This document shows, in pieces, positions 1-22,824 of a DNA stretch of 49,406 nt (position 1 is the first letter of the stretch; each line of letters opens with the position of its first letter). A model generated the notes under the pieces. That model ran no database searches. It saw only the letters and a list, made by a program, of their open reading frames with translations, and was not told where the DNA came from. Position numbers and translations under genes: made by a program. The stretch is from Bacilli bacterium (GTDB lineage Bacteria > Bacillota_I > Bacilli_A > RFN20 > CAG-826), in the NCBI GenBank assembly GCA_017450325.1, contig JAFSVB010000080.1, positions 1 through 49,406 on the forward strand, read 5' to 3'.

Positions 1-426
1 GCCGGCATAAGGGTCGATGACCGCAATGCTTGTTTTTGCCTTGGAAAACAGTTCTTTTATAAATGCTCTAGCGTCTAAATATTCGTCGTCGAAGAAAACC
101 TTTTCTAAGTCCGGGATATGTTCTTCCTCGATTTTGACCAGCCTCGAGTCGATGCTTTCAACCTTATTTAGAAGATTAATGTAATTCTCGTTGGTCACAA
201 GAACGCGGCTATTATCAACTACATAGCCACGTAATAAATACTCTTTTAGGACGGAGTTTGCCCATTTTCGAAAAGCCACACCGTTTTTAGATTTCACGCG
301 GTACCCAACCGAAATGATTACATCTAGGTTATAAAACTCAATGGTTCTTCTAACCGTTTTATTTCCTTCCTTTTGAACCGCTGCATTTTTTGCAACAGTT
401 TGATCTTGTTCTAACTCCCCTTTTGC
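1..426 (-). pseudogene. RhuM-family (virulence RhuM/ORF6N-like DNA-binding) gene, 5'-disrupted and running off the window edge
   Basis: Manual minus-strand translation gives GELEQDQTVAKNAAVQKEGNKTVRRTIEFYNLDVIISVGYRVKSKNGVAFRKWANSVLKEYLLRGY...IAVIDPYAG, the RhuM signature. An in-frame TAG at 427-429 lies just upstream with no suitable start; an LADVYKTTK remnant sits upstream in another frame. Confidence 0.75.
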
Positions 427-483
427 CTAAATCTCCCTATTCACCATTTTGTCGTTTTATAGACATCCGCGAGCCCATAAAAC

Positions 484-1581
484 TCATTTGCCTTGGATGA
501 TCCTACGGAGTGCCAAATATTCCCTTAAATAGATCCCGCGCTTTATCTCGTCTTCTTTCGCATATTGCTGATGCTTACTAAAGATATCGATCGCGTCTTT
601 GATGGGTATCCATTTTGGTTCTAGTCCGGCTTTTGCTTCTTGTTCGGTTAACTGGGCTTTGCTTTGCCCAACGACATTGCAAAGAAAATACTTACTGATG
701 TATTTTTCGTTTTCGTAATATTCGTCTATTTCCAACGCGCATTTGGTTGGGCCCACGATATATCCGGTTTCCTCGGATATTTCTCTTTTGACGCAGGACG
801 TCTCCTCTTCATCGTTCTCCGCTCCGCCGCCTGGAATCATCCATACATCGTTGTTCTTGGCATATACCAAAAGGATACTGCCACCATTAATGACGATCCC
901 TCGACAAGCGACTCTGGTGTTTGAAAAATAATCCATGTAGTTGTCGCCATATATTTCGATAAAACCTTTATCGAGCTTCCTTTGGCTTATCCTTTGGACA
1001 AACAAACTGATCGGACAATCGAAAAACTCCGCAATTCTGAAGGCATTTTGGAAAGACGCTTTATATAAGGCCCCGTCATCCGCGTTGTATTTCGCAAGCG
1101 TGGCTAGCCCGATTCCCGTTTCATAACTTGCTTTTGTCAACGAGGTTCTCCTTTGCTCGCAAAGAAGCCTCAATATCGTTTTTTCTTTGCAAATTCGGAC
1201 AAAATATTCCAATAGCGAAGAGAAATCCATTTCGTGGTAGATGGTATAAATGTCCACCATTTTGGTTAACGGAAGCTTTAAGAAGATGTAGGCAAAGGGC
1301 TTTTGGGTTCTAAGCTGCAATTCGAAATACGAATAGCCGCACCAATAGGCATCGTTATAGACTCCATAGCTGTTATCTTCGTTGATCCTGTTGCCCGTGA
1401 TATCGAAAAAGATGTCGGTTAATTCTTTATTGAAATAATCGTCGTACTCCTTGAGTTCAAGCTTTTTTATCAGTTCGCTCTTAGAAAGCGCCGTCGTAAA
1501 GGAAAGCAGGTTCATCTTGTTCCAAAAGGCGAGCACGAATAAACGCGCGAAAAGCTCTTTCGTGCTTCTTAAATCATTCAT
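484..1581 (-). CDS. Fusion: DUF3990-partner-like N-terminal domain + XRE-like HTH + C-terminal Nudix hydrolase
   Basis: HTH-like segment SLTKASYETGIGLATLAKY...IAEFFDCPISLF; complete Nudix box GGAENDEEETSCVKREISEETGY (Gx5Ex7REUxEExGU); overlaps the upstream DUF3990 gene by 8 nt. Confidence 0.8.
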   Translation of the reverse strand: MNDLRSTKELFARLFVLAFWNKMNLLSFTTALSKSELIKKLELKEYDDYFNKELTDIFFDITGNRINEDNSYGVYNDAYWCGYSYFELQLRTQKPFAYIFLKLPLTKMVDIYTIYHEMDFSSLLEYFVRICKEKTILRLLCEQRRTSLTKASYETGIGLATLAKYNADDGALYKASFQNAFRIAEFFDCPISLFVQRISQRKLDKGFIEIYGDNYMDYFSNTRVACRGIVINGGSILLVYAKNNDVWMIPGGGAENDEEETSCVKREISEETGYIVGPTKCALEIDEYYENEKYISKYFLCNVVGQSKAQLTEQEAKAGLEPKWIPIKDAIDIFSKHQQYAKEDEIKRGIYLREYLALRRIIQGK

Positions 1582-2230
1582 GGTCCATCACCAAATCCCT
1601 TAATCTCGTGCCTTTTGCGTATCGATCGGCATTCAACAAATCGGTGAATACTTTGTCCGCACCGCTTTTCCGTAAGTAATAATCTTGGCGGCTTATTGTA
1701 AGCGCTTCTTCGGAATCTAAATAATGAATTAATCGAAAGGCCCGTTCAGAAATCAAAACATATTGTTTCCCCAATTCTCCAGCTTGGAATATCTTGTCCA
1801 AAGATTCCAAAGTGATCTCGCTTCGAACAAATGCCTCTGGGAAACGGAAGTAACTGTCGTCTGCCCGATAGCCAATCACAATGTCGTATTTTGAAGCATC
1901 GATAAGAAACTTTTTTTCTAGATAAGCGAGCTCCCTAGGAAAATTGCTCCTGAGGTCGGCGGATAATTCACGATTATGCATCAAAAGGGCTACCCAATAT
2001 AAAACGTCTCTAAACGGTGGTTTCGTTAAATCCAAGATTTTTAATCTGTCATCCCTAATCTGATACTTATTTATATATCCGTGGCCCGTTCTTTTTGCGG
2101 CCCATTCCTTTGCGAGGCCTTTGTTTGAGCAACAGTAAAAGCCCAATCCATAGTCATTATGGATATTGCCCTTTAAATATTCGGGTTTCTCAATGATAAA
2201 TTCGCTTCCATGGTAAATGATTCGTTCCAT
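1574..2230 (-). CDS. DUF3990 domain protein (predicted ADP-ribosyltransferase-like fold)
   Basis: Motifs IIYHGS...IEKP...NDYGLGFYC...AKEWA and YDIVIGYRADD...LGKQY match DUF3990. Confidence 0.8.
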   Translation of the reverse strand: MERIIYHGSEFIIEKPEYLKGNIHNDYGLGFYCCSNKGLAKEWAAKRTGHGYINKYQIRDDRLKILDLTKPPFRDVLYWVALLMHNRELSADLRSNFPRELAYLEKKFLIDASKYDIVIGYRADDSYFRFPEAFVRSEITLESLDKIFQAGELGKQYVLISERAFRLIHYLDSEEALTISRQDYYLRKSGADKVFTDLLNADRYAKGTRLRDLVMDHE

Positions 2231-2236
2231 ATAAAA

Positions 2237-2265
2237 ACCATATTTTGTGAATGTTTATATGTCAA
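2237..2265 (-). promoter_or_regulatory. Sigma-A-type promoter, leaderless arrangement for the DUF3990 gene
   Basis: TTGACA-17 bp-TATGGT, then 6 nt, then ATG (2230); no Shine-Dalgarno. Confidence 0.6.
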
Positions 2266-2347
2266 GACTATATACTGTGGTATATTTTTTATTCGTTTTT
2301 AGGTGCACATTCAATTCGTATTTAAGTTTTGATGACCTCAAGACACG

Positions 2348-2369
2348 AAAAAGACCCCAAAAGGGACCT
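2348..2369 (-). terminator. Possible intrinsic terminator
   Basis: Minus strand AGGTCCC-TTTT-GGGGTCT followed by TTTT; imperfect stem. Confidence 0.4.
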
Positions 2370-2546
2370 ATCTATCTGAATATCGGTTTTTGTCCAACTT
2401 TGGATAAGTGACTTTGGACTACGACAGGCTGTGGCCGGCTGAATCGATTTATCCAGTTTTGCACACGGTCGCCCATTGGAATTATGCCGCGCCGAGTCTG
2501 GTACGCGAATTCTAATTCACCCATAAAGCAGATAAAATACCAGTCG

Positions 2547-3089
2547 ATGGAAGTTCTATTAGAAATACTGTTCGAAATAGTCGGCCAAATAGTGGGCGCG
2601 ATAATCGAGGGACTTTTTTGTGTTCTTTCTGATCGATACATGTCCAATACGCAAGCCAAGAAGAGAGCAAAATACATTATTGGTGCGCTGATTCTGACAG
2701 GAGTAATAGCGCTGACCGTTTACGGACTGATAACCAAAAGAGGCCCAATTGTCATCGCTTCTTTGTCATACATTCTTTCATTGTCTATCATTCGTGGGGC
2801 TCTGTTCTTTAATGGGCAAGACGGCAAGAAATGGATAAAACAACTATTTGGATGGCTTGCTCGCATCCTTCATTATGGGTTTGCAATAACCCTTATTGTT
2901 TTGACCGCAATCTACGTCGATGGCCCAGTTGCAAAGCCACTTCTCATCTCCTTGTCGGCACTTTCAATTGTTATTTTTTTCTTTATTGATATGCACAAGC
3001 TTCGCACGTGGGACAAAGAAAGGTGGAAGAAGCGTGAGTTCTCTTTTACAGACCAAACTAATGATGTAAAAGACAGGCTAGATGATTGA
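2547..3089 (+). CDS. Hypothetical integral membrane protein
   Basis: Several hydrophobic helices; likely start MEVLLEILFEIVGQ at ATG 2547. Confidence 0.7.
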   Translation: MEVLLEILFEIVGQIVGAIIEGLFCVLSDRYMSNTQAKKRAKYIIGALILTGVIALTVYGLITKRGPIVIASLSYILSLSIIRGALFFNGQDGKKWIKQLFGWLARILHYGFAITLIVLTAIYVDGPVAKPLLISLSALSIVIFFFIDMHKLRTWDKERWKKREFSFTDQTNDVKDRLDD

Positions 3090-3218
3090 ACGGGCCGCGG
3101 CTCTTTTCGTTTGGGGCGAAAGAAAAGGACCTGGTCGATAGCCAAGTCGATTTCTATATGGGTGTTGCTGCGTCGCCCGGATAAACGAGTTTGTGCAGCG
3201 ACAACAGGCAATAAAAAA

Positions 3219-3294
3219 TGGTGGATCCGACCGGGATCGAACCGGCTACCTCCTCGTTGCGAACGAGGCGCTCTCCCAGATGAGCTACGGACCC
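3219..3294 (-). tRNA. tRNA-Ala (anticodon CGC)
   Basis: GGGTCCGTAGCTCATCTGGGAGAGCGCCTCGTTCGCAACGAGGAGGTAGCCGGTTCGATCCCGGTCGGATCCACCA: 76 nt cloverleaf, G3:U70 alanine identity pair, encoded CCA. Confidence 0.97.
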
Positions 3295-3687
3295 ACAGGC
3301 TCGATTATTATACTCAACGTGAGTTGTGAATCAACCGCAAGAATTAAGGATTGCGGGCGTGCGCGCCACGTTCGCTCGCGCGAAGAACATAGGTAAGCCA
3401 AGCGCGTTGTTACGCCGCAAAGAAGAAAAACCTATAACGATAAATCCGCTATTGAAAATCCAAAAACCTTGCAATTCCGTCATATCATTCTGAAATTGCA
3501 AAGTTTTTATCCTAATGTTGCAACTCATTTTTCACCCGAAATTCAAGATGGGTTTTTTAGATAACGTATAGGTAAACGCCCGAACATAAGACCGTCTCAA
3601 GCAAATCAAAAGTTACGCACATACCCCTGCATGAAACATGGATTTCGCAAGGCTTTTCTAACACTTTATTTGCCTTACGATGAAGCT

Positions 3688-4944
3688 ATGGAAAGCGAAG
3701 TCTACGCGGTGATTGACATTAAGAGCTTCTATGCCTCCTGCGAGTGCGCCGCACGGGGGCTTGACCCTTTTTCAACGCCTTTGGTCGTAGCGGACAAATC
3801 GCGCAGCGTCAACAGCATCGTCATGTCCGCGACGCCCTATCTGAAGGCGCGTTACCGCATCCCAAATGTCTGTCGCATCCAAGACCTCCCCGATATCGAG
3901 GAGATGATCTACGCTACCCCGCGCATGTCCTATTACGTGGAGATGTCCGCCAACATCGTCTCCCTCTTCCTCGACTTTGTCGCCGAAGAGGACCTCCACG
4001 TTTACTCCATCGACGAGTCCTTCCTGCGCCTGACACCCTATTTAAAGATGAACGAATGCGACGCCTTTGGCTTCGTCAAGAAGATCCAAGAGGCAATTAA
4101 GGCGCGCTTTGGATTAATCGCGACGGCAGGGCTTGGCCCGAATATGTTCCTCGCAAAGGCATGCTTGGATAACGAAGGCAAAAAGAAACCGCCCTACCGC
4201 GCTTACTGGGGCTATGAAGACGTGCAAACAAAGTTATGGAAAGTCGCGCCGATTACCAAGATATGGGGCATTGCCCATGGAATCGGGTCTCACCTGCACC
4301 GTATCGGCATCCGCAGCATGGAGGCCCTTGCAAAAGCCTCTCCGGCGCTTATCGAGAAAGAATTTGGCGTCGTCGGGCTTGATTTGCAATTGCTCGCAAA
4401 CGGCATCGACCATACCGATATCACCCATAAGTATGTTCCAAAGGAGACGAGTTTTAGCCAAGGGCAAGTCCTGATGCGCGACTATATGCCCGCGGAGGCT
4501 GCCCTCGTGCTCAAAGAGATCGTCGACGAACTTTGTATCCGTCTACGCGCGGCAAACGCCCAAACGAAGGTCGTCTCGCTCTTCGTCGGATATTCCTCGA
4601 CGGGAGGCGGAGGTGGGTTGCACCATCAATGCGCCCTCAATGTCGCCGCCGATGATAACGACATCCTCAATGACCTCGTGCAGCAGCTTTACGCCCGCTA
4701 CATCGAGCCCCGTCCCATCCGTAACCTCGTCGTGAGTTTTGGGAAGCTGTCCTGTTATGACGCCCCACGCCAGCAATCCATTTTTGAGCGTGAGGAGGAA
4801 CTGCAAGAGCGCCGCTGCCTGCGCCTCGCCATGGATAAAATCAGCGAGCGTTTTGGCCGAAACGCCATCCTAAGAGCTTCCGCCCTCCTGAAACATTCCA
4901 CCATCATCGACCGTCATGGCCTCATTGGAGGGCACCGCGCATGA
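3688..4944 (+). CDS. Y-family DNA polymerase (ImpB/MucB/SamB, UvrX/PolY2-like)
   Basis: IDIKSFYASCE, YSIDESF, GLGPNMFLAK and a C-terminal IIDRHGLIGGHRA typical of Firmicutes UvrX; start probably ATG 3688. Confidence 0.93.
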   Translation: MESEVYAVIDIKSFYASCECAARGLDPFSTPLVVADKSRSVNSIVMSATPYLKARYRIPNVCRIQDLPDIEEMIYATPRMSYYVEMSANIVSLFLDFVAEEDLHVYSIDESFLRLTPYLKMNECDAFGFVKKIQEAIKARFGLIATAGLGPNMFLAKACLDNEGKKKPPYRAYWGYEDVQTKLWKVAPITKIWGIAHGIGSHLHRIGIRSMEALAKASPALIEKEFGVVGLDLQLLANGIDHTDITHKYVPKETSFSQGQVLMRDYMPAEAALVLKEIVDELCIRLRAANAQTKVVSLFVGYSSTGGGGGLHHQCALNVAADDNDILNDLVQQLYARYIEPRPIRNLVVSFGKLSCYDAPRQQSIFEREEELQERRCLRLAMDKISERFGRNAILRASALLKHSTIIDRHGLIGGHRA

Positions 4945-13828: not shown

Positions 13829-14789
13829 GCAAATCCTTGTCTTTTTGATTGTTTTTTTGACGGACGAGCGGGTCAAAACCCTCACCGTTAATCATGGATG
13901 CCTTGGTGAAGGTGACAAAGGCTCTCGGGTCCACGTTACCAATATAATCGCGGAACGCAAACAGCTCGCGCGAGGAGAACGCAACGCGAATTAGTTTCTT
14001 TCCTTCACCGGAATAGCCGCCCGTCACATCGATGACGGTAGTCGCATGGTCCATGTTTTTATGGACATATTCCTGAATCTTCTCATATTCGACGGAAATG
14101 ATGTCCGCGATAATAAAGGATTCGGCATTCACGTATACGTATTGAATCGCAAGCGCGCACGTGAAGGCGCCGATGACGCCGACGAGGGCGATGCGCACGT
14201 CCCTGGTCGCGATAACGCCGACGAGTACAAGCGTCGCGTCTAACGCGAACGAGGCGACGGCTTCCTTGACAGGGGTGTTGCGCGCGATAATCGTGCAGAT
14301 CACGTCAAGGCCGCCCGTAGAGCCGCCCGCATGGTAGCATGTAGCCACACCTACGCCGACCAAAACGCCGCCAGCGAGTGCCGCAAGTATGAGCTGGCCG
14401 AAATCCGCAGGGTCAAAAAGACGGCAGATATAATTGCCGAGGCTAAGCCCCCCAAACACTTGAACGCGCGTGAATAGCGAAAAGAGCAAAGGATAAAGCA
14501 GACTCGTGTAAATCGTGCGAATCGTGTATTTCTTGCCGAGCACCAAAAAACTGATAAGAAGCAAGACCACCTGGGCAGCGCCCGTGATGATGTCGACCGC
14601 ATAGAAGTCTGATCCCGAGAGGGAAATGAAGTGCTGGATGATGACGCCGATGGACAAGACGCCACCCGTAACAAGTCCTAAGGGGGAGATGAAAGCGGCT
14701 GAGCCAAAAGCCAAAACAAGGCACCCAAGTGTCAAAATTAAGTATTTTTTGGCAATGGCAAAGCCTTTTGACTTCGTAAACCTAGCCAT
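13821..14789 (-). CDS. YitT family membrane protein (with DUF2179-like C-terminus)
   Basis: [19 protein letters not shown]...VDPRAFV. Confidence 0.88.
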
Positions 14790-15889
14790 GACGTGCCTCA
14801 GATTCTAAATAAGCGTAGATAAAGGGCAGGATATCGCCATCCATCACGCCATTGACATCACCCGTTTGATAATCGGTGCGATGGTCTTTCACCATCGTAT
14901 AGGGCTGGAAGACATAGCTGCGAATCTGGGAACCCCACTCGATGTTCTTCTGCTCGCCTTGGATGGACTTTAGCTCACGGTTGCGTTCTTCGAGCTTACG
15001 CTGCATCAAAAGGTCGGTCAGCATCGACATGCAGTTTTCTTTATTCATCAGCTGGGAGCGCTCGACCTGGCACTGAACGACAATGCCCGTCGGAAGGTGG
15101 GTGATGCGAACGGCGGAAGAGACCTTGTTCACGTTTTGGCCGCCGGCGCCGCCAGAACGGTATGTATCGACGCGGAGGTCCTTAGGATCGATGACGATAT
15201 CGCTGATCGCGCCAAATTCTGGAATGACGTTGACGGAAGCAAAGCTCGTATGGCGACGCGCCGCAGCGTCGAATGGCGAGATGCGAACCAGGCGATGGAC
15301 GCCTTTTTCGCCTTTGAGATGGCCATAGGCATCGGGACCGGAAATCTTCAAAGCGATGGACTTAATACCCGCTTCGTCGCCTTCTTCCATGTCCATGACT
15401 TGCAGTTTGAAGCCGTTGCGCTCGCAAAAGCGGCCATACATGCGCGAAAGCATCTGAGCCCAGTCTTGGGCTTCGGTGCCGCCAGCGCCCGCATGGACTT
15501 CCAGCGTGCAGTTCAATGCGTCATATTCGCCCGAGAACAAGAGCTTATGGCGGAGGTCTTCGCATTCCGTCCCGAGCTCTTCTTCCATGGAGTCGATTAG
15601 CTCGATCATCTCCCCATCGCCTTCCGAGGTCTCGGAAAGGAGGGCGTTGATATCGTCCATGGCCGAGACGGATTTTTCGTAGACGCCAAGCTTTCCCGTC
15701 AAAGCGGAGTAGCGCGCCATGACGACTTTGGCGGAATTGGGATCATCCCAAAAACCGTCCTTGTTTTGTTTTTCTTCCAGCGAGGCGATCTCCGACTTTA
15801 TCTTAGGCAGGTCAAAGAGAGTCACCGAGCTGCGAGACAAGACGGCCGAGTTCCACGGCCCTCTGTTTTAATTCGACGAGCTCTTTCAT
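14782..15889 (-). CDS. prfB: Peptide chain release factor 2 with programmed +1 frameshift
   Basis: First frame ATG 15889 [25 protein letters not shown] then CTT-TGA-C; the +1 frame continues DLPKIK...; SPF and GGQ motifs. Confidence 0.96.
15811..15826 (-). promoter_or_regulatory. prfB +1 frameshift site
   Basis: GGTGAC-TCT-CTTTGAC, CTT is codon 25; upstream GGTGA can pair with the anti-SD. Confidence 0.92.
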
Positions 15890-15933
15890 TATTCCTTTTC
15901 TCTCAAATTATCGGTGTTTTGCAGGGTTTTAGT

Positions 15934-18900
15934 TTATTCTGCAGGGTTTTCTGCAGGACGGATCTCGAGTTGAACGCGAAGCAGGTTCAAGGCGGTATCC
16001 ACGGCGACGGCATCCATTAGGAGGCTGACAAGGGGGGCGCCTTCGGCTGCGTAATCCTCGAGGGTGTTCTTCTCGGCGCGGGCAAGGATGCCTTGCTTGA
16101 AGGTCAGAAGGTTCTTGTGGTGAGCCTCCCAATCGCGGTCGATAACCTGGGCGCAGACATTGCGTTCCACGTAGTCGGCCTGTTCAGGGGTCCACTGTTT
16201 ACGGCGCTGGAGATATTTCTGATAGAGGGCATCGGAAAGTTTCTTGGTCGCCTCTTCGGTCGTGAGGTCATATTCCTCGGCGTTGAATTCGCCCTCGTCG
16301 AAGAAATTCGGAACGACCATGGCCTTCATCGGCTCAACATCGATCTTGCCTTCCTTGCTATAACGACGGCAGATGGCGCTGGCAGCGGTGTCGAAGAGGG
16401 CGCGAATCGTCTTCACGACGCTTGGAATGTGGGCGATTGTGTCGCGGAGTTCAATCGCGGCGCGATGGTGCGCCGCAACGACCTCGTCTTCATCGGGTTC
16501 GGTCGCTGGTGCGGGCGGAACGCTGGCATGGGAGGCGCTGCCGACGCGCGGGGCGGCACCGCCTTGTGCGGCGGCCTTTGCCGCTTCGGCCTGCTGCTGA
16601 GCGGCCTGCTGACGGCGCATTTGCTCCTCGCGTTCTTCGGGGGTCGTGAGACGGACGCGCATGAAGCTACGGACGCAGTCGACAGCCACCTGCTCGTTCA
16701 TTTCGCGGAAGAGGGCATAGCCTTCGTTGACGTAATCCTGAAGCGGATTGGTATGCGCGTAGGAGCGTAGACCGATGCCATCACGGAGATGGGACATCGT
16801 ATCGATATGCTTGGTCCAGTTGCGGTCGATGACGGAGAGGGAGACGTTGCGTTCGATGTAATCGGCCTGTTCCTCGGTCCACTCTTTGCGGCGCTGCAGA
16901 TACCTCTGGTAGAGGAATTCGCCTAAGTCCTCGCCGCCTTCTTCAACGGTCGCTTCCTCATAAGCCTTATACGGGAAGGCACCTTCATCCACGAAGGCAG
17001 GTTCGACTTGGCGACGGAGTTCCTCTGCGTTGATGAGGCCTTCGTCGCGGCCCGCGAGGACGGATTTCTTCGCGAGGTATTTGCCCGTGTCGACGAAGAA
17101 GGTATGCACCATCTCGCTGATGTCGCCCGCGAGCATGATATTGTCGCGGCGGGTATAGATGATCTGACGCTGCTTAGCGAGAACGTCATCGTAATCAAGG
17201 AGGTTCTTACGGGTATCGAAGTTGCGGCCCTCGATCTGCTTTTGGGCATTGGTGACGACGTTTTGAATCATGCGGTTCTCAAGGTGGTCGTCGCCGAGTT
17301 GTTTCTTAAAGGTATCGCGGATATTGTCCGGAACGAAGCGGCGCATAAGCTCGTCGTCGAAGGAAACATAGAAGCGGGAGAAACCAGGGTCACCCTGACG
17401 TCCGGAACGGCCGCGGAGCTGATTGTCGATACGGCGGGATTCATGGCGTTCGGTGCCTAAGACGCAGAGGCCGCCGAGTTCTTTGACTCCTTCGCCGAGC
17501 TTGATGTCGGTACCACGACCAGCCATGTTGGTGGCCAAGGTAACGGCGCCCTTTTCGCCTGCGTGGGAGATAATTTCCGCTTCGCGGGCGGCGTTTTTCG
17601 CATTGAGGACCTCGTGGGGGATGCCCGCGGCGGTGAGCAAGGCGGAAATTTCTTCGTTGGATTCAACGGAGGAAGTACCGATCAAAACGGGCTGCCCTTT
17701 CTCGTGGCGCTCCTTCACCTCTTGGACGAGGCCGGCGAGTTTCGCGTTGTGATTACCATAGATATGATCATCGTCGTCGATACGCTGAATCGGGCGGTTG
17801 GTCGGGATGACGATAACCTTCATGTTGTAGATCTTCTCGAATTCCTCTTCCTCGGTCTTCGCGGTACCGGTCATGCCGGAGAGTTTCTTATAGAGACGGA
17901 AGAAGTTCTGATAGGTAATCGTCGCCATGACGACGGTTTCCTGCTTGATTTCGACGCCTTCCTTGGCTTGAATCGCTTGCTGGAGACCGTCGTTATATTC
18001 GCGGCCCTTCATGATACGGCCAGTGAACTGATCGATGAGCTGGATCTGACGCTCGGAGTCAACCATGTATTCGACGTCACGCGCCATGATGTAGTTGGCT
18101 TTGAGGGCTTGGTGGATACGGTGGACGAGGTCCTGGTTTTCAGGGTCATAGAGGTTGCGGATGCCGAACATCTTCTCGGCTTTGTCGTTGCCAGAGTCGG
18201 TCAAAGAAGCGGTCTTCGTCTTGATATCGACGGTGAAGTCCTTCTCCTTCTTGAGCATTTTGACGAAGCGGTCCGCGACCTGGTATTGGCTCGCGGCGGC
18301 TTGCTTGCCACCGGAAATGATAAGCGGGGTCCTCGATTCATCGACGAGGACGGAGTCGGCTTCGTCGACGATGCAGAACTTAAGGCCGCGGAGGACGCGC
18401 CCTTGCATCGTGGTGGCCATGTTGTCGCGGAGGTAGTCGAAACCAAGCTCCGAGTTGGTCGTATAGGTGATGTCACAAAGATACGCCTCGCGCTTCTCGG
18501 CGGTGGTTTTGGAGGCGAGGTTGACGCCGACGGTCAAACCGAGGAAGCGGTAGACCTGGCCCATCCATTCCGCGTCACGGGAGGCGAGGTATTCGTTGAC
18601 GGTGATGACGTGGACGCCTTCGCCACGGAGGGCGTTGAGATAGACGGCCATGGTCGCGGTCAGGGTCTTACCTTCGCCCGTGCGCATCTCGGCGACGTTG
18701 CCGCCATCGAGGACGAGCGAGCCGACGATCTGAACCTTGAAGGGTTTCTGCTGTAAAGTGCGCCACGCCGCTTCGCGAGCGACGGCAAAGGCCTCAATCT
18801 TGATTTCTTCTTGCTTGCGGTCTTTCTCTTCCGGCGTCGTCGCGGCGGCGAGGATCGCCTTGAATTCATCGGTCTTCGCACGAAGTTCGTCATCGGTCAG

Positions 18901-19005
18901 AGCCGCCATTTTGCTATCCAGCGCCATGACGGATTCGGCTACGCGTTCGAGCCGCTTCAGTTCTCTTTTTTCGAGGTGGAATATTGCTTCAATAAAGTTA
19001 GCCAC
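15934..19005 (-). CDS. secA: Preprotein translocase ATPase SecA with duplicated C-terminal wing/scaffold module
   Basis: MRTGEGKT, VDEADS, NMAGRGTDI, RGRSGRQGDPG; likely GTG start at 19005 after AAGGAG; about 170 extra C-terminal residues repeat the SecA_SW region. Confidence 0.96.
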   Translation of the reverse strand: MANFIEAIFHLEKRELKRLERVAESVMALDSKMAALTDDELRAKTDEFKAILAAATTPEEKDRKQEEIKIEAFAVAREAAWRTLQQKPFKVQIVGSLVLDGGNVAEMRTGEGKTLTATMAVYLNALRGEGVHVITVNEYLASRDAEWMGQVYRFLGLTVGVNLASKTTAEKREAYLCDITYTTNSELGFDYLRDNMATTMQGRVLRGLKFCIVDEADSVLVDESRTPLIISGGKQAAASQYQVADRFVKMLKKEKDFTVDIKTKTASLTDSGNDKAEKMFGIRNLYDPENQDLVHRIHQALKANYIMARDVEYMVDSERQIQLIDQFTGRIMKGREYNDGLQQAIQAKEGVEIKQETVVMATITYQNFFRLYKKLSGMTGTAKTEEEEFEKIYNMKVIVIPTNRPIQRIDDDDHIYGNHNAKLAGLVQEVKERHEKGQPVLIGTSSVESNEEISALLTAAGIPHEVLNAKNAAREAEIISHAGEKGAVTLATNMAGRGTDIKLGEGVKELGGLCVLGTERHESRRIDNQLRGRSGRQGDPGFSRFYVSFDDELMRRFVPDNIRDTFKKQLGDDHLENRMIQNVVTNAQKQIEGRNFDTRKNLLDYDDVLAKQRQIIYTRRDNIMLAGDISEMVHTFFVDTGKYLAKKSVLAGRDEGLINAEELRRQVEPAFVDEGAFPYKAYEEATVEEGGEDLGEFLYQRYLQRRKEWTEEQADYIERNVSLSVIDRNWTKHIDTMSHLRDGIGLRSYAHTNPLQDYVNEGYALFREMNEQVAVDCVRSFMRVRLTTPEEREEQMRRQQAAQQQAEAAKAAAQGGAAPRVGSASHASVPPAPATEPDEDEVVAAHHRAAIELRDTIAHIPSVVKTIRALFDTAASAICRRYSKEGKIDVEPMKAMVVPNFFDEGEFNAEEYDLTTEEATKKLSDALYQKYLQRRKQWTPEQADYVERNVCAQVIDRDWEAHHKNLLTFKQGILARAEKNTLEDYAAEGAPLVSLLMDAVAVDTALNLLRVQLEIRPAENPAE

Positions 19006-19100
19006 GTTAATCTCCTTGCTCAAAAGTGCCCGTAAATCATACCATTTGGTCAAATGGTAGGCAACAATGCGTGCGTGTAATGCGCGGAACAGGCGACGCG

Positions 19101-19766
19101 CTATAGAAATGATGGTCTGCGTCGACGTTTCCTATCCTTGGCGACGCGCGCCAAAACCAGGACCTCAATCTTGGCTGGATGCAGCCTTTGAAGGAGTTTC
19201 AGGCAAGCTCGAACCGTCGCCCCGGTGGTGAAGACGTCATCGACAAGAAGCACCTTCTCTCCGCGGATTTTCGCCCCTGGAAGCAGGGATATATAATTGC
19301 CGACCTTTTTTCGGCCGAACTTGTTCTGGTCGCTCTGCTTGAAATCAGATGTCTTTTGCAAGAGGCAACGGACTTCCTTTCCTAGCCCTTCGAACATCGC
19401 CGGAAGATGGTCGAAACCACGCGCATCGATTTTCGAGGAGGAGGAAGGCGCGGGGACTACTACATAATGTCTATATCGGATTTTAAGAAACGGGAATAGA
19501 CGCTCCAAAAAGGCCTGCCTTAGCTCGTAGTCGCCACACCCCTTATACAAGTAAATCAATGATTGATAGGCCTCCTCATATCGATATACAGAAGTAAAAT
19601 GAATGCCGTTTTCTTTCCAATGTACATAAGTGGGTTTTAACGCTAAAAAACATCGCAAACAAATTGATTTCGCTGCAAAAACGGCATTAAAAATCGAATT
19701 TTTCTCAATGGGCCTATGGCACACTTTGCAGAAAAGTGTTGCAGTAGCTGATTTCTTTGATGGCAT
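19101..19766 (-). CDS. comFC: ComF family protein (ComFC-like, PRTase fold)
   Basis: N-terminal CxxC...CxxC, RGFDH, LLVDDVFTTGAT; follows comFA. Confidence 0.88.
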   Translation of the reverse strand: MPSKKSATATLFCKVCHRPIEKNSIFNAVFAAKSICLRCFLALKPTYVHWKENGIHFTSVYRYEEAYQSLIYLYKGCGDYELRQAFLERLFPFLKIRYRHYVVVPAPSSSSKIDARGFDHLPAMFEGLGKEVRCLLQKTSDFKQSDQNKFGRKKVGNYISLLPGAKIRGEKVLLVDDVFTTGATVRACLKLLQRLHPAKIEVLVLARVAKDRKRRRRPSFL

Positions 19767-20877
19767 CTTTCATCCCCTCACTTTCTTTCTCGGCGACGAA
19801 GAAAACGTCGCCCTCGGGCGCGTCCGCCTTCCGCCCTGCCCTACCTGCGATCTGAATGAGAGCGGCGGCGTCATAAATCTCATCGTTGGCCTTAAAGACG
19901 ATGACCTGCAGGTCGCGGATGGTGACGCCGCGCTCCAAGACCGCCGTCGTCACCAGATAGCGGAACTTGCCCTTCTTAAACGTCTCGATGACCTCTTTTC
20001 GGTAAACGTGTTTGCTCGAGACATAATGGCCCTGCGGAACGAACATCCTCAATACGCCATAGAGGCTTTCCGCCTCATTAACCGTCGGGACGAAAACGAG
20101 ACATTGTTTGCCGCTTCTACGATAATCAAGCAGCCTGCGGATGACGAATATCTGCATCAAAGGACCGAGTCGAAGGACCGTTTTAGGCACAGGAATGGGT
20201 TTCTTGTGGTAACGGGTCCGTAAGCAGAGCATGTCCCTGCCAGGCTTTTGGAATTCTTGAATGACCTCCTTCGATGGCGTCGCGCTCATCATGACGTAAT
20301 GCCCGCGCATCGCCGCATGGAAAAAGGCGATTAACGTCGGGTCTCCCTTAAACGGAAACGCGTCGATCTCGTCCATCACCAACAAGTCAAAGTAATGGTC
20401 GTAACGATAAAGCTGATGGGTGGTCAAAATAATACAGTCGCCCTCTAGTTTTGAGTTATGTTGCCCGTAAACGGCAATGACGCTGTTGCCGGGAAACGCA
20501 TCGCGAAGGCGAAGATATAGCTCGATGACGACGTCGCGGCGCGGCAAGGCAAAGCCAACGTTCATGCCCATCGACATCGCATAGGCGATCACGCCATAGG
20601 ATATCTCGGTCTTTCCCGAACCGCAGACCGCATAGACAAGCGTGTCGATGCCAGCCTTAAAATTCGCGATGATCTTGTTGGATAGCTCCTGTTGTTCCTT
20701 CGAAAGGGAATAGGAAAGATCGAGTTTGATGGTCTTATGGCTCTTCGGCAAGTCCTTGGCCATATCGCCATGAAAGCCGATGCAGCGCCGACAATACGTC
20801 TTGCCGTTTTTCACGCCGAGGTAAATCGGATCAAAGTTCCCGCAACGGGGACAAACAAAAGAAGTTCCCACATTCAC
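19714..20877 (-). CDS. comFA: ComFA-like DEAD/DEAH helicase
   Basis: CPRC...YCRRC zinc finger, AVCGSGKTE, DEIDAFP, SAT, LERGVT, QIAGRAGR. Confidence 0.9.
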   Translation of the reverse strand: MNVGTSFVCPRCGNFDPIYLGVKNGKTYCRRCIGFHGDMAKDLPKSHKTIKLDLSYSLSKEQQELSNKIIANFKAGIDTLVYAVCGSGKTEISYGVIAYAMSMGMNVGFALPRRDVVIELYLRLRDAFPGNSVIAVYGQHNSKLEGDCIILTTHQLYRYDHYFDLLVMDEIDAFPFKGDPTLIAFFHAAMRGHYVMMSATPSKEVIQEFQKPGRDMLCLRTRYHKKPIPVPKTVLRLGPLMQIFVIRRLLDYRRSGKQCLVFVPTVNEAESLYGVLRMFVPQGHYVSSKHVYRKEVIETFKKGKFRYLVTTAVLERGVTIRDLQVIVFKANDEIYDAAALIQIAGRAGRKADAPEGDVFFVAEKESEGMKDAIKEISYCNTFLQSVP

Positions 20878-20920: not shown

Positions 20921-21964
20921 TCAGAGCATGTCGACGCGATGATGATGCTTCTGGTTGGTCGAAAAGGGGACGCTTAAGAAGATGTCGACGCGGCGAAGAA
21001 CGTCTTCGAGCTTCATGTATTTCTGTCCGAAGGAGATGACGTTGGCGTTGTTGTGATCGCGACACTTGGCGACGACAACATCGTCATAGCCGATGCCGCA
21101 CCGCACGCCACTCACCTTATTCGCGGCCATGGAGATCCCTTCGCCCGAAGTGCAGATGACGACACCGAGATCCGCTTCTTTCGCGACGACTTTCTCCCCG
21201 ACCGCTTTGCCATAAATGGGGTAATCGACCGAGGCCTTGGAATAGCACCCAAGATCGAGAACGCCGAACCCCATATCGAGGAGATGGAGTCGGATTGCTT
21301 CCTTGTAATCATAGCCGCCATGGTCGCATCCGATGGCGATCGTTTTCTTCGAATTTCGATACACGCCCTCCACTTTTTCAAAAGGAAGGGAGCCCTGGCG
21401 GATTAATTTCGGCGCGCCTTTTCCCGTGAGGTCGACGATGGTCGAAGGAACGTTGGAGGACGTCTCTCCGCGCACGATGACCGAAGCGCGGGAGGAGAAG
21501 ATTTCGCAGGCTTGCTCAAAATCTTTTGCGGGAGCTTGCCCAGACATGTTCGCTGAAGAGACGAGCAGCGGCTCACCGACCTTCTCGATGAGAGTGAGGG
21601 CTTCTGGGCTATTAGGAACGCGCACGCCGATGACGCCCGTACCAAGGTCAATCGTATGAGGAACGCCTTTTCTAGCGCGAAGTAACAACGTGAGTTCGCC
21701 AGGCATCAGTTCATTTAAAACGGCGGCTATGCCGACGTCGATCTCGCAGTATTGCGCAACCGTTCCCATATCCGCGCACATTAGGGTAAACGGCTTTTCC
21801 GCAGGTCTGCCTTTTGCTTCGCGAAGCGCATTGTATGCCTCCTCGCTTGAAGCGATGCAGGCGATTCCGTAAACCGTTTCCGTAGGAAAGAGAACGACTT
21901 CACCGCGTTTTAATGCGTCGATGGCGGTCTGCGTATCTGACCAGTCTATTATCTTTGCTTCCAT
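20921..21964 (-). CDS. Fusion of threonylcarbamoyl-AMP synthase (TsaC/YrdC domain) and ribose-5-phosphate isomerase B
   Basis: N-terminal FPTETVYGI, KGRP, SSANMSG, PSTIVD; C-terminal IGCDHGG, DYP, CTSGEG, ANKVSGVR, HNNAN; RBS GGAGG before MEAKII. Confidence 0.9.
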   Translation of the reverse strand: MEAKIIDWSDTQTAIDALKRGEVVLFPTETVYGIACIASSEEAYNALREAKGRPAEKPFTLMCADMGTVAQYCEIDVGIAAVLNELMPGELTLLLRARKGVPHTIDLGTGVIGVRVPNSPEALTLIEKVGEPLLVSSANMSGQAPAKDFEQACEIFSSRASVIVRGETSSNVPSTIVDLTGKGAPKLIRQGSLPFEKVEGVYRNSKKTIAIGCDHGGYDYKEAIRLHLLDMGFGVLDLGCYSKASVDYPIYGKAVGEKVVAKEADLGVVICTSGEGISMAANKVSGVRCGIGYDDVVVAKCRDHNNANVISFGQKYMKLEDVLRRVDIFLSVPFSTNQKHHHRVDML

Positions 21965-21978
21965 GGAGATCCTCCCCC

Positions 21979-22824
21979 TCATTTGCAGAATACGAACAAG
22001 AATCTGGTAAGGCCATTCAGGTCTTTCATGAATTCGTATTCGTAGTCCTCGAGGTATTTATTCATCAAGTCCGTTAGATAACCCTCGAGGTCATACCCGA
22101 TCTCAAAGGCCATGAATAACGTGCCTTTCTTAACTTTCTTATAATCGCGGAAAATATCCTCATAGACGGAATTCTCTATCGTGAGGTAAAGCGCTTCTTC
22201 GGGCTCATAACGTTTCACTGAATCCTGAACTTCGTCCTTGTTGAGGATATAAGGCGGGTTCGAGATGATGATATCGAGGTTCATCTTCGCCTCGATGTAC
22301 GGGGTGAGGCTCTTGCCCTGAAGGAGGTTTGCGCGGACGTTATGCTCCTGCACGTTTTTCTTCGCGACTTCTAAGGCTGCGGAAGACATATCCGACCCTA
22401 CAAGAAGCCAATTGGGGAACATGGACCGCAATGCGCATAAGATCGCGCCGGACCCCGTGCCGATATCCGCGCAGACGAGGTAATTGCGCGGGTCATAGTA
22501 ATCCAAGATCTTTTCCGAGAGGTTCGCGACGAGTTCCTCCGTCTCCATCCGCGGGATCAAAACGCGGGGATCTACATAGATTTTCGTGTGCAAAAACGTG
22601 GCTTCGTTAATCACGTATTCTACGGGCATTCCTTGCAATAACTTTGCAAAATCCGCCTCAAATTGTTCGATTTTCGTAAATTCGTCGTCTTTATGATAAA
22701 GGGTATCGATGGGCTCTAAGTACCCCATTTCATGAGCGATCAGGACACGGATATCCTGCGAGGTGACGCCAGACTCCTTGCCCGAGTTCATCGCGTTTAG
22801 ATAGACGTCGTAGATCTTAGGCAT
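21979..22824 (-). CDS. prmC: Release factor glutamine methyltransferase
   Basis: VLIPRMETEELV, DIGTGSG, SNPPY; downstream of prfA. Confidence 0.95.
   Translation of the reverse strand: MPKIYDVYLNAMNSGKESGVTSQDIRVLIAHEMGYLEPIDTLYHKDDEFTKIEQFEADFAKLLQGMPVEYVINEATFLHTKIYVDPRVLIPRMETEELVANLSEKILDYYDPRNYLVCADIGTGSGAILCALRSMFPNWLLVGSDMSSAALEVAKKNVQEHNVRANLLQGKSLTPYIEAKMNLDIIISNPPYILNKDEVQDSVKRYEPEEALYLTIENSVYEDIFRDYKKVKKGTLFMAFEIGYDLEGYLTDLMNKYLEDYEYEFMKDLNGLTRFLFVFCK

Follow-up and report, generated by a model that had tools for sequence, protein, structure and literature searches.

SecA itself is a well-known protein, and what is still argued about it concerns the role of its C-domain (IRA1, finger and wing), its action as a monomer or a dimer, and the purpose of its variable tails. 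The canonical C-domain (C34) consists of scaffold, wing and the IRA1 two-helix finger and corresponds to the family SecA_SW (PF07516). In solved SecA structures, the scaffold helix runs with its first half across both nucleotide-binding domains (NBD1 and NBD2), and an aromatic residue in the conserved finger-tip loop is a feature of the two-helix finger (IRA1) of translocating SecA. The secA gene described here lies on a 49,406-nucleotide (nt) stretch of DNA (hereafter the window), which comprises positions 1 to 49,406 of contig JAFSVB010000080.1 from a Bacilli bacterium (GCA_017450325.1; GTDB lineage Bacteria, Bacillota_I, Bacilli_A, RFN20, CAG-826). Its product carries the scaffold/wing (SW) region twice in one chain, first as a canonical module (SW1) and then as a diverged C-terminal copy (SW2).

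Further described systems come close to this arrangement. Accessory SecA2 proteins are likewise SecA variants with altered C-terminal parts; they are shortened in the C-domain, not duplicated. The tails that follow the C-domain are covered by a survey of 156 SecAs, excerpts of which count a tail in 143 proteins and a metal-binding domain in 117, with 26 of the 143 tailed proteins lacking that domain, and describe "alternative" C-terminal tails in many SecAs (PMC6620043). According to the same excerpts, the E. coli tail modulates the conformation and activity of SecA and binds both SecB and ribosomes, and the ribosome-binding tails described there are basic (PMC6620043). Finally, the excerpted text of a study of dissected SecA summarises that the C34 fragment regulates the ATPase of N68 and that a role in dimerisation has been proposed for it, and describes C-terminal fragments starting at 640 or at 654/662 that complement N-terminal fragments in trans (PMC5456053).

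The presence of two SW regions in the window protein was evident from both profile and pairwise comparisons. PF07516 was reported with two stretches in the whole protein; SW1 scored 177 bits over profile positions 2-199 of 200, and the last 238 aa, searched by themselves, matched profile positions 36-200 of 200 with 46.4 bits (E 6.4e-12), above the cut-off of 26.7. BLASTP aligned SW1 with the C-terminal part at 67 of 181 identities (37%; E 1e-36), and two DNA copies of 100 nt (16129-16228 and 16816-16915), spaced 687 nt apart, were 78% identical. An earlier note on the window had proposed an in-frame, diverged tandem wing/scaffold copy that includes a two-helix hairpin, and these data bear it out. 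Its coordinates (about 15960-16475 and 16650-17180) fit SW2 and the copied SW1 segment as delimited in Table 1, the peptide pairs that it aligned are present at residues 698-733 and 927-962, and the Pfam check for two SecA_SW matches that it suggested returned both, SW2 exceeding the cut-off without help from SW1.

SW2 is a true homologue of the canonical C-domain, with the same order of seven helices. It differs from that domain in being a second copy in the chain, in lacking profile positions 1-35, and in having lost the finger-tip signature, which is LRSYAxTNPLQ within the genus. The scaffold helix of SW2 is accordingly incomplete, its first helix spanning 19 residues versus 48 in SW1. The loop GIGLRSYAHTNPLQ of SW1 corresponds to GILARAEKNTLE in SW2, which is two residues shorter and has no tyrosine, as the earlier note had pointed out. 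The note's statement that a Cys-rich SEC-C motif is missing also held: PF02810 gave no match at E<=1 in the whole protein, and because only two cysteines (Cys879 and Cys951) follow residue 780, no zinc motif can be present. SW2 is acidic, with isoelectric points (pI) of 5.1-6.1. The layout of the protein (core, low-complexity linker and small folded end domain) is that of the E. coli-type tail with its linker and zinc or iron metal-binding domain (PF02810), although the end domain here is a copy of the protein's own wing/scaffold module, about 175 aa long, acidic, and without a Cys cluster.

Table 1. Features of the secA gene and its product in the window. Residue numbers follow the 1023-aa protein that starts with the GTG at 19005.
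Feature	Position (nt)	Strand	Residues	Evidence or remarks
secA coding sequence	15934..19005	(-)	1023 aa + stop	GTG start at 19005
DEAD motor (NBD1, NBD2) with inserted preprotein cross-linking domain	17284..18978	(-)		Pfam
SW1, canonical SecA_SW: full scaffold helix, helical wing domain, two-helix finger	16654..17283	(-)		Pfam, AlphaFold2
Copied part of SW1, mid scaffold helix (DYDDV...) to finger end	16651..17196	(-)	604-785	BLASTP
SW1 finger-tip loop GIGLRSYAHTNPLQ	16738..16779	(-)	743-756	Alignment; conserved across genus
Linker, about 52 aa, Q/A/P/E-rich, low-complexity	16495..16650	(-)	786-837	pLDDT 33-56, alignment
SW2 (about 175 aa): second half of scaffold helix, wing domain, two-helix hairpin	15970..16494	(-)	838-1012	Pfam, BLASTP, AlphaFold2, Foldseek
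SW2 best-conserved core LYQKYLQRRKQWTPEQADYVERNVCAQVIDRDWEAH	16120..16227	(-)		Holds 12 of 20 positions invariant in nine SW2 lineages
SW2 hairpin loop GILARAEKNTLE	16057..16092	(-)	972-983	Alignment
Terminal tail LEIRPAENPAE, 11 residues	15937..15969	(-)	1013-1023	Alignment
SW1 helices			578-625, 630-647, 660-667, 679-682, 687-706, 711-746, 754-783	Full-length AlphaFold2
SW2 helices			841-859, 864-881, 890-901, 909-912, 916-935, 940-975, 982-1010	Full-length AlphaFold2

The fold of SW2 was modelled with AlphaFold2 (AF2). From a six-row alignment, SW2 alone was predicted as seven helices with a predicted local distance difference test (pLDDT) value of 93.8 and a predicted template modelling (pTM) score of 0.87, and its hairpin, formed by helices of 35 and 29 residues, was retained at full length. 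The seven helices match those of SW1 one for one, with the exception of the shorter first helix. In a Foldseek search of the PDB with this model, the best match was B. subtilis SecA (3jv2_B; query-based TM score, TMq, 0.81; root-mean-square deviation 3.0 Å over 176 columns), and the best 29 listed matches were all SecA or SecA2. The TMq values to SecA of B. subtilis, E. coli and T. maritima were 0.76-0.81 (chains 3jv2, 3iqy, 2fsh, 6itc and 1tf5). A sequence profile aligned SW2 to residues 600-771 of B. subtilis SecA and 645-809 of T. maritima SecA, with a two-residue gap at the finger tip. The linker was modelled at the low pLDDT given in Table 1. SW2 is thus predicted to be an autonomously folding helical domain held on a disordered leash of about 50 aa.

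The double-SW architecture is real and not an artefact of assembly, because contigs from independent runs bridge the junction and the same architecture, in diverged form, occurs in the genomes of five other species and in metagenome records. Two Logan contigs, one of 539 nt from run X2 (16358-16896) and one of 854 nt from run X4 (15870-16723), span the SW2-linker-SW1 region with point differences only and without indels or joints, and the two runs come from different studies. In total, 14 DNA runs from ten studies contained 38-63% of the words sampled from the window, and all were animal gut samples according to their records. The earlier note had argued that the copy is not a simple assembly repeat, and the bridging contigs and diverged copies agree with it.

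By its model scores and its locus, the double-SW protein is the housekeeping SecA of the organism and not a SecA2: it passes the SecA equivalog cut-offs, fails the SecA2 models and is encoded in a secA-prfB locus. The NCBIfam models NF009538 and TIGR00963 gave 1050.6 bits (cut-off 814) and 1001.4 bits (cut-off 800), and all four SecA2 models stayed under their cut-offs, with TIGR03714 at 790 (930), TIGR04397 at 871 (1085), NF012136 at 724 (1100) and TIGR04221 at 617.5 (725). The domain set is complete, with PF07517, PF21090, PF01043 and PF07516 all above their cut-offs; in P0001 numbering, SecA_DEAD covers residues 26-406, SecA_PP_bind 255-362, and P-loop_SecA begins at 421. The open reading frame (ORF) that contains secA extends over 15934-19053 (-), and the ORF finder begins it with a TTG at 19053, 16 codons upstream of the GTG at 19005; the GTG start matches the relatives and the ESM Atlas record, all of which begin with MANFIEAIF. 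Directly downstream in the window lies prfB with a canonical CTT TGA C +1 frameshift site, and the secA-prfB order is common to the window, the five other double-SW species and the single-SW species G045 (L034-L039 examined). In those five genomes, a search with an SW query returned the two same-frame SW matches and no other SW-bearing gene, all genomes in this copy-number comparison being incomplete metagenome-assembled genomes (MAGs). In the bin of the window itself (G000), another secA-prfB fragment is present on contig C135 (3.5 kb; L013:1-3511). The secA of this fragment is cut by the contig start, has a single SW domain that falls among those of single-SW species and not with SW2 in the SW tree, and has a separate prfB behind it. 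The fragment is most probably that of a co-binned relative, not a paralogue (bin contamination 3.6%).

We surveyed how widely the architecture is distributed, as the earlier note had suggested. An SW match was obtained in 55 of 58 species genomes of the genus, and six of the 58 (G000, G046, G006, G055, G007 and G050) have two SW regions in one frame. A pattern scan for SW2 across 185,579 species genomes matched just the five other double-SW species, and three further double-SW lineages (P0004, P0006/L041 and L042) were recovered from a protein database and a metagenome scan. The reading frame is intact in all nine lineages. Relatives with SW2 are recorded as MAGs of "Bacilli bacterium", "Candidatus Enteromonas sp." or "Erysipelotrichaceae bacterium", and several of them come from ruminant gut compartments. 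No second same-frame SW region was detected with PF07516 in 282 genomes of the order's other genera (301 genomes scanned), the model being one that under-detects diverged copies. At E<=1e-5 it failed to pick up SW2 in G007, a known case, and Pfam membership weakens in the more diverged lineages. A profile built from the six SW2 sequences and searched against 1.84 billion representatives gave 448 matches at E<=1e-3, none of them a SecA with two stretches, in a search limited as a survey by the fact that full-length double-SW SecAs sit inside ordinary SecA clusters at 50% identity. The 14 examined of the best 150 matches were one full-length single-SW SecA and C-terminal SecA fragments, mostly from an internal Met. 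Two candidates from this search were rejected: P0099, a match with 10 stretches, is a TPR protein, and the examined members of an apparent standalone SW-like family (matches of 240-330 aa with recurring offsets of 52, 55 and 43) are C-terminal pieces of SecA from a conserved internal Met.

The earlier note knew of no SecA with this architecture. In the full-text literature, we likewise found no paper describing an intragenic SW duplication in SecA, although the 156-sequence alignment of PMC6620043 could hold one, and the ESM Atlas annotates the protein only as "SecA_SW". The clade-restricted double-SW SecA is previously undescribed in the literature found.

The history of the duplication was examined with a tree of 22 SW1 and six SW2 modules and a tree of the motor (residues 1-570), the latter being independent of the trait itself. 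In the SW tree, the six SW2 modules form one group (SH-aLRT 100), which is joined to the SW1 modules of the same six species and of G045 (SH-aLRT 100). In the motor-only tree, the six double-SW species form one clade (90) with the single-SW G045 as sister (98), so that one change is needed. Since both trees group the carriers in one clade, these phylogenies point to a single intragenic tandem duplication, which took place within the genus in the common ancestor of that clade. The unit that was copied starts midway along the scaffold helix, includes wing and finger, and reaches into the old tail, and the 687-nt spacing corresponds to the SW segment plus about 46 tail residues. In G006 and P0004, SW2 is followed by a long acidic, Pro-rich tail that resembles the tail ends of SecAs in single-SW relatives.

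To compare the evolution of the modules, pairwise rates were calculated by the Nei-Gojobori method for the six species (15 pairs); synonymous divergence (dS) is saturated (about 1-2), which makes all ratios of nonsynonymous to synonymous divergence (dN/dS) rough. On this footing, dN/dS was 0.04-0.10 for the motor, 0.05-0.19 for SW1 (dN 0.066-0.143) and 0.13-0.61 for SW2 (dN 0.26-0.66; 13 pairs with computable dS), and amino-acid changes accumulated about 4-6 times faster in SW2 than in SW1. The proportion of nonsynonymous differences in SW2 (pN 0.22-0.44) was below that of synonymous differences (pS 0.52-0.77) in 15 of 15 pairs. The linker had a dN of 0.36-1.45 and an amino-acid identity of 19-55% among the six species, it varies between species in both length and sequence, and in the pair G000-G055 its pN exceeded its pS. 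Mean pairwise identity was 87% for SW1 and 45% for SW2. Among 99 SW1 columns conserved at 90% or more in 22 SecAs of the genus, 15 are unchanged in SW2, 37 vary, and 15 have switched to a new conserved residue. Twenty SW2 positions are invariant across the nine lineages, and 12 of them lie within the pattern Y..RR..W..EQA...ER.....V....W..H. The hairpin loop, in contrast, differs in all nine lineages and has a three-residue deletion in G050. These substitution patterns indicate that SW2 is fast-evolving yet under purifying selection and selectively maintained. Within the 36-codon core (16120-16227 versus 16807-16914), pS between SW1 and SW2 was 0.44 in G000 and 0.58-0.73 in four other species, a small sample in which the row for G046 is void (its SW1 was missed by the regular expression); the low value in G000 hints only weakly at gene conversion over a short tract and may be noise.

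The tails of the other SecAs in the genus place SW2 in context. The SEC-C motif is absent from all 22 genus SecAs aligned, the window protein and 21 others, and those others end in acidic or Pro-rich sequence or in a small helical domain without a family match. The earlier note had SW2 "replacing the SEC-C tail"; the absence of SEC-C stands, and the replacement does not, since SW2 was added to a lineage that was already without the zinc domain. A search for SecB (PF02556) in the genome (completeness 95.8%) gave no match. In three species, G009 (L026:380-769), G022 (L030:3257-3646) and G014 (L032), SecA ends in a different small helical domain (...KPMNLDEAK...LLCKDAK...), which follows a Pro/Lys/Glu-rich linker and matches no Pfam family at E<=0.1. 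The SecA tails of this genus are a hot spot of invention. Another observation concerns the motif GETAxAExSGNV, which lies about 20 residues past the SW1 end in many members, both double- and single-SW (L015-L019, L022, L029, L011, P0004 and P0006), and is replaced by a Q/A-rich string in G000 and G046 (at about 16495-16650 in the window); the ancestral tail may have contained it as a short linear motif.

Our preferred reading, to which we give a probability of roughly 45% as a whole, is by analogy with the tails and fragments of other SecAs: SW2 would be the C-terminal regulatory tail of this clade, a tethered, non-translocating pseudo-C-domain whose likeliest partner is SecA itself. After the duplication, SW1 kept the canonical sequence, and SW2 became a fast-evolving but retained domain on a leash. 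SW2 is unlikely to work as a finger in its own right. With the initial half of the scaffold helix missing, it should be unable to clamp the motor as SW1 does, and the loss of its tip motif, at a site that now varies freely, makes a finger that inserts into SecY or contacts the polypeptide improbable. SW2 would instead act by protein-protein contact, standing where other SecAs carry a flexible linker and a metal-binding domain. By analogy, we would guess that its likeliest partner is the cross-linking domain or the motor of the same or a second SecA protomer, where, by competing with the resident C-domain or imitating it, SW2 might adjust basal ATPase activity, the state of the clamp or oligomerisation. 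The C34, C30 and C28 laboratory fragments offer the nearest parallel, as SW2 begins about where C30 and C28 begin in the scaffold helix, and the excerpted text describes these two as soluble and as complementing N-terminal fragments (PMC5456053). The fragments are laboratory pieces of a sole C-domain, whereas here the resident C-domain is present besides SW2, and any binding by SW2 is putative. If SW2 does act on SecA, it would be a natural probe of the communication from C-domain to motor and from C-domain to cross-linking domain.

Several points weigh against this reading. The contact of SW2 with any partner is a guess by analogy and not a result. A 257-nt contig from the metatranscriptome run X15 covers 16570-16826 with no mismatch; it is no proof of transcription, as DNA carry-over is possible, and the SW2 protein is a predicted one. 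The AF2 confidence for SW2 reflects six sequences and a fold that the network knows from SecA structures. The full-length AF2 model (pTM 0.34) has a poorly resolved core, with pLDDT below 50 at residues 308-406, and is uninformative on docking; a complex prediction of the core (1-786) with SW2 (838-1023) gave ipSAE values of 0.01 and 0.00 (mark 0.32), and, run without controls, it speaks neither for nor against binding. The saturation of dS described above also counts here. Moreover, the conserved positions of SW2 are largely those common to all SecA SW domains (W, ER and W..H), and selection may keep only the fold and no specific surface.

Among the other explanations, the one that survives best, though it is on balance unlikely, is that SW2 docks a partner other than SecA (the ribosome, a chaperone, substrate proteins or SecYEG, for example) and serves as a recruitment handle in place of the metal-binding domain. 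Like the metal-binding domain that ends other SecAs, SW2 sits on a tether and is retained by selection, and the variation of tails in the genus, with a different helical end domain in three species, suggests a swappable adaptor. The binding of SecB and ribosomes by the E. coli tail, as given in the excerpts, points the same way, but the acidic SW2 is unlike the basic ribosome-binding tails described there (PMC6620043). Docking to the ribosome is further disfavoured by the anatomy of the module. SW2 starts past the part of the scaffold helix that carries the ribosome-binding lysines. If SW2 does bind another partner, the clade, which has neither SecB nor a zinc domain, would have met its need for an adaptor by reusing a piece of its own SecA.

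A narrower proposal, which we regard as slightly less probable still, is that SW2 is a built-in mimic or competitor of the C-domain, a "pseudo-dimer" or spare IRA1-wing module that swaps with the resident C-domain or docks beside it and thereby gates the ATPase and clamp opening. The SecA crystal dimers (1m6n, 2fsf, 2ipc and 2ibm) have two C-domains per functional unit, which SW1 and SW2 could mimic; here both C-domains are in one chain and SW2 is without the motor-binding parts, and the comparison is one of architecture only. If true, this would be a new, self-derived form of SecA autoregulation in a lineage without SecB or a zinc tail.

It is also conceivable, if rather improbable, that SW2 is evolutionary baggage, a functionless duplicate whose frame stays open only because a tail that misfolds or is cut short does harm. 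Its 4-6 times faster change, the 37 of 99 SW1-conserved positions that now vary, the loss of the finger-tip motif, and the mostly fold-determining nature of its conserved positions, which are common to all SecAs, would be expected of such a relic. However, SW2 has remained intact in nine lineages in which synonymous sites are saturated (dS about 1 or more), with pN below pS in every pair; in that time, the linker next to it changed with hardly any constraint (dN up to 1.45). The 15 positions at which SW2 conserves a new residue also argue against it, as do the quite different tails of related species, by which deletions at the tail are clearly possible. If SW2 nevertheless does nothing, it would be a clean case of a long-lived neutral domain duplicate.

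The notion that SW2 is a second working two-helix finger, or a decoy for SecY at the channel entrance, has little to recommend it beyond the full length of its hairpin. The loop is two residues shorter, lacks the aromatic tip, differs among the nine lineages and is further shortened in G050, and SW2 is without that half of the scaffold by which the finger is anchored on the motor. Of the roles considered in the earlier note, the tethered decoy, taken as a SecY-inserting finger, is made unlikely by this variability of the loop in all nine lineages, whereas its intramolecular dimer mimic and its chaperone/docking module are still candidates. An assembly or binning artefact, in the sense of a collapsed or chimeric join of two secA alleles, might be suspected from the second secA-prfB fragment and the 3.6% contamination of the bin, but it can practically be dismissed given the bridging contigs of two independent runs, the mere 37% identity of the copies, the separately diverged SW2 of five other species and three metagenome lineages, and the grouping of the C135 SW domain with single-SW species. 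A practical limit is that every carrier is an uncultured gut bacterium for which metagenome bins are the sole source.

Some features of the neighbouring DNA were also recorded. The prfB gene downstream of secA starts with an ATG at 15889 (-) and has its +1 frameshift site at about 15807-15813; the ORF finder lists only the post-shift frame (14782-15840). As the site contains TGA, this codon is a stop in the organism. Directly upstream of secA, 19101-20877 (-) encodes a ComFC-like phosphoribosyltransferase and a ComFA-like DEAD/ResIII helicase in frames that overlap by about 50 nt, and the resulting comF-secA-prfB order is that of Bacillus. A single 353-aa frame at 20921-21982 (-) encodes both a Sua5/YciO/YrdC domain (residues 23-197) and, fused to it, a LacAB/RpiB isomerase domain (215-353). 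Positions 1-4000 of the window have a G+C content of 0.42-0.45, compared with about 0.52 elsewhere, and carry genes for a NUDIX protein, a DUF3990 protein, a 201-aa frame without a family, and a Y-family polymerase (IMS) from 3631; this segment may be acquired DNA.

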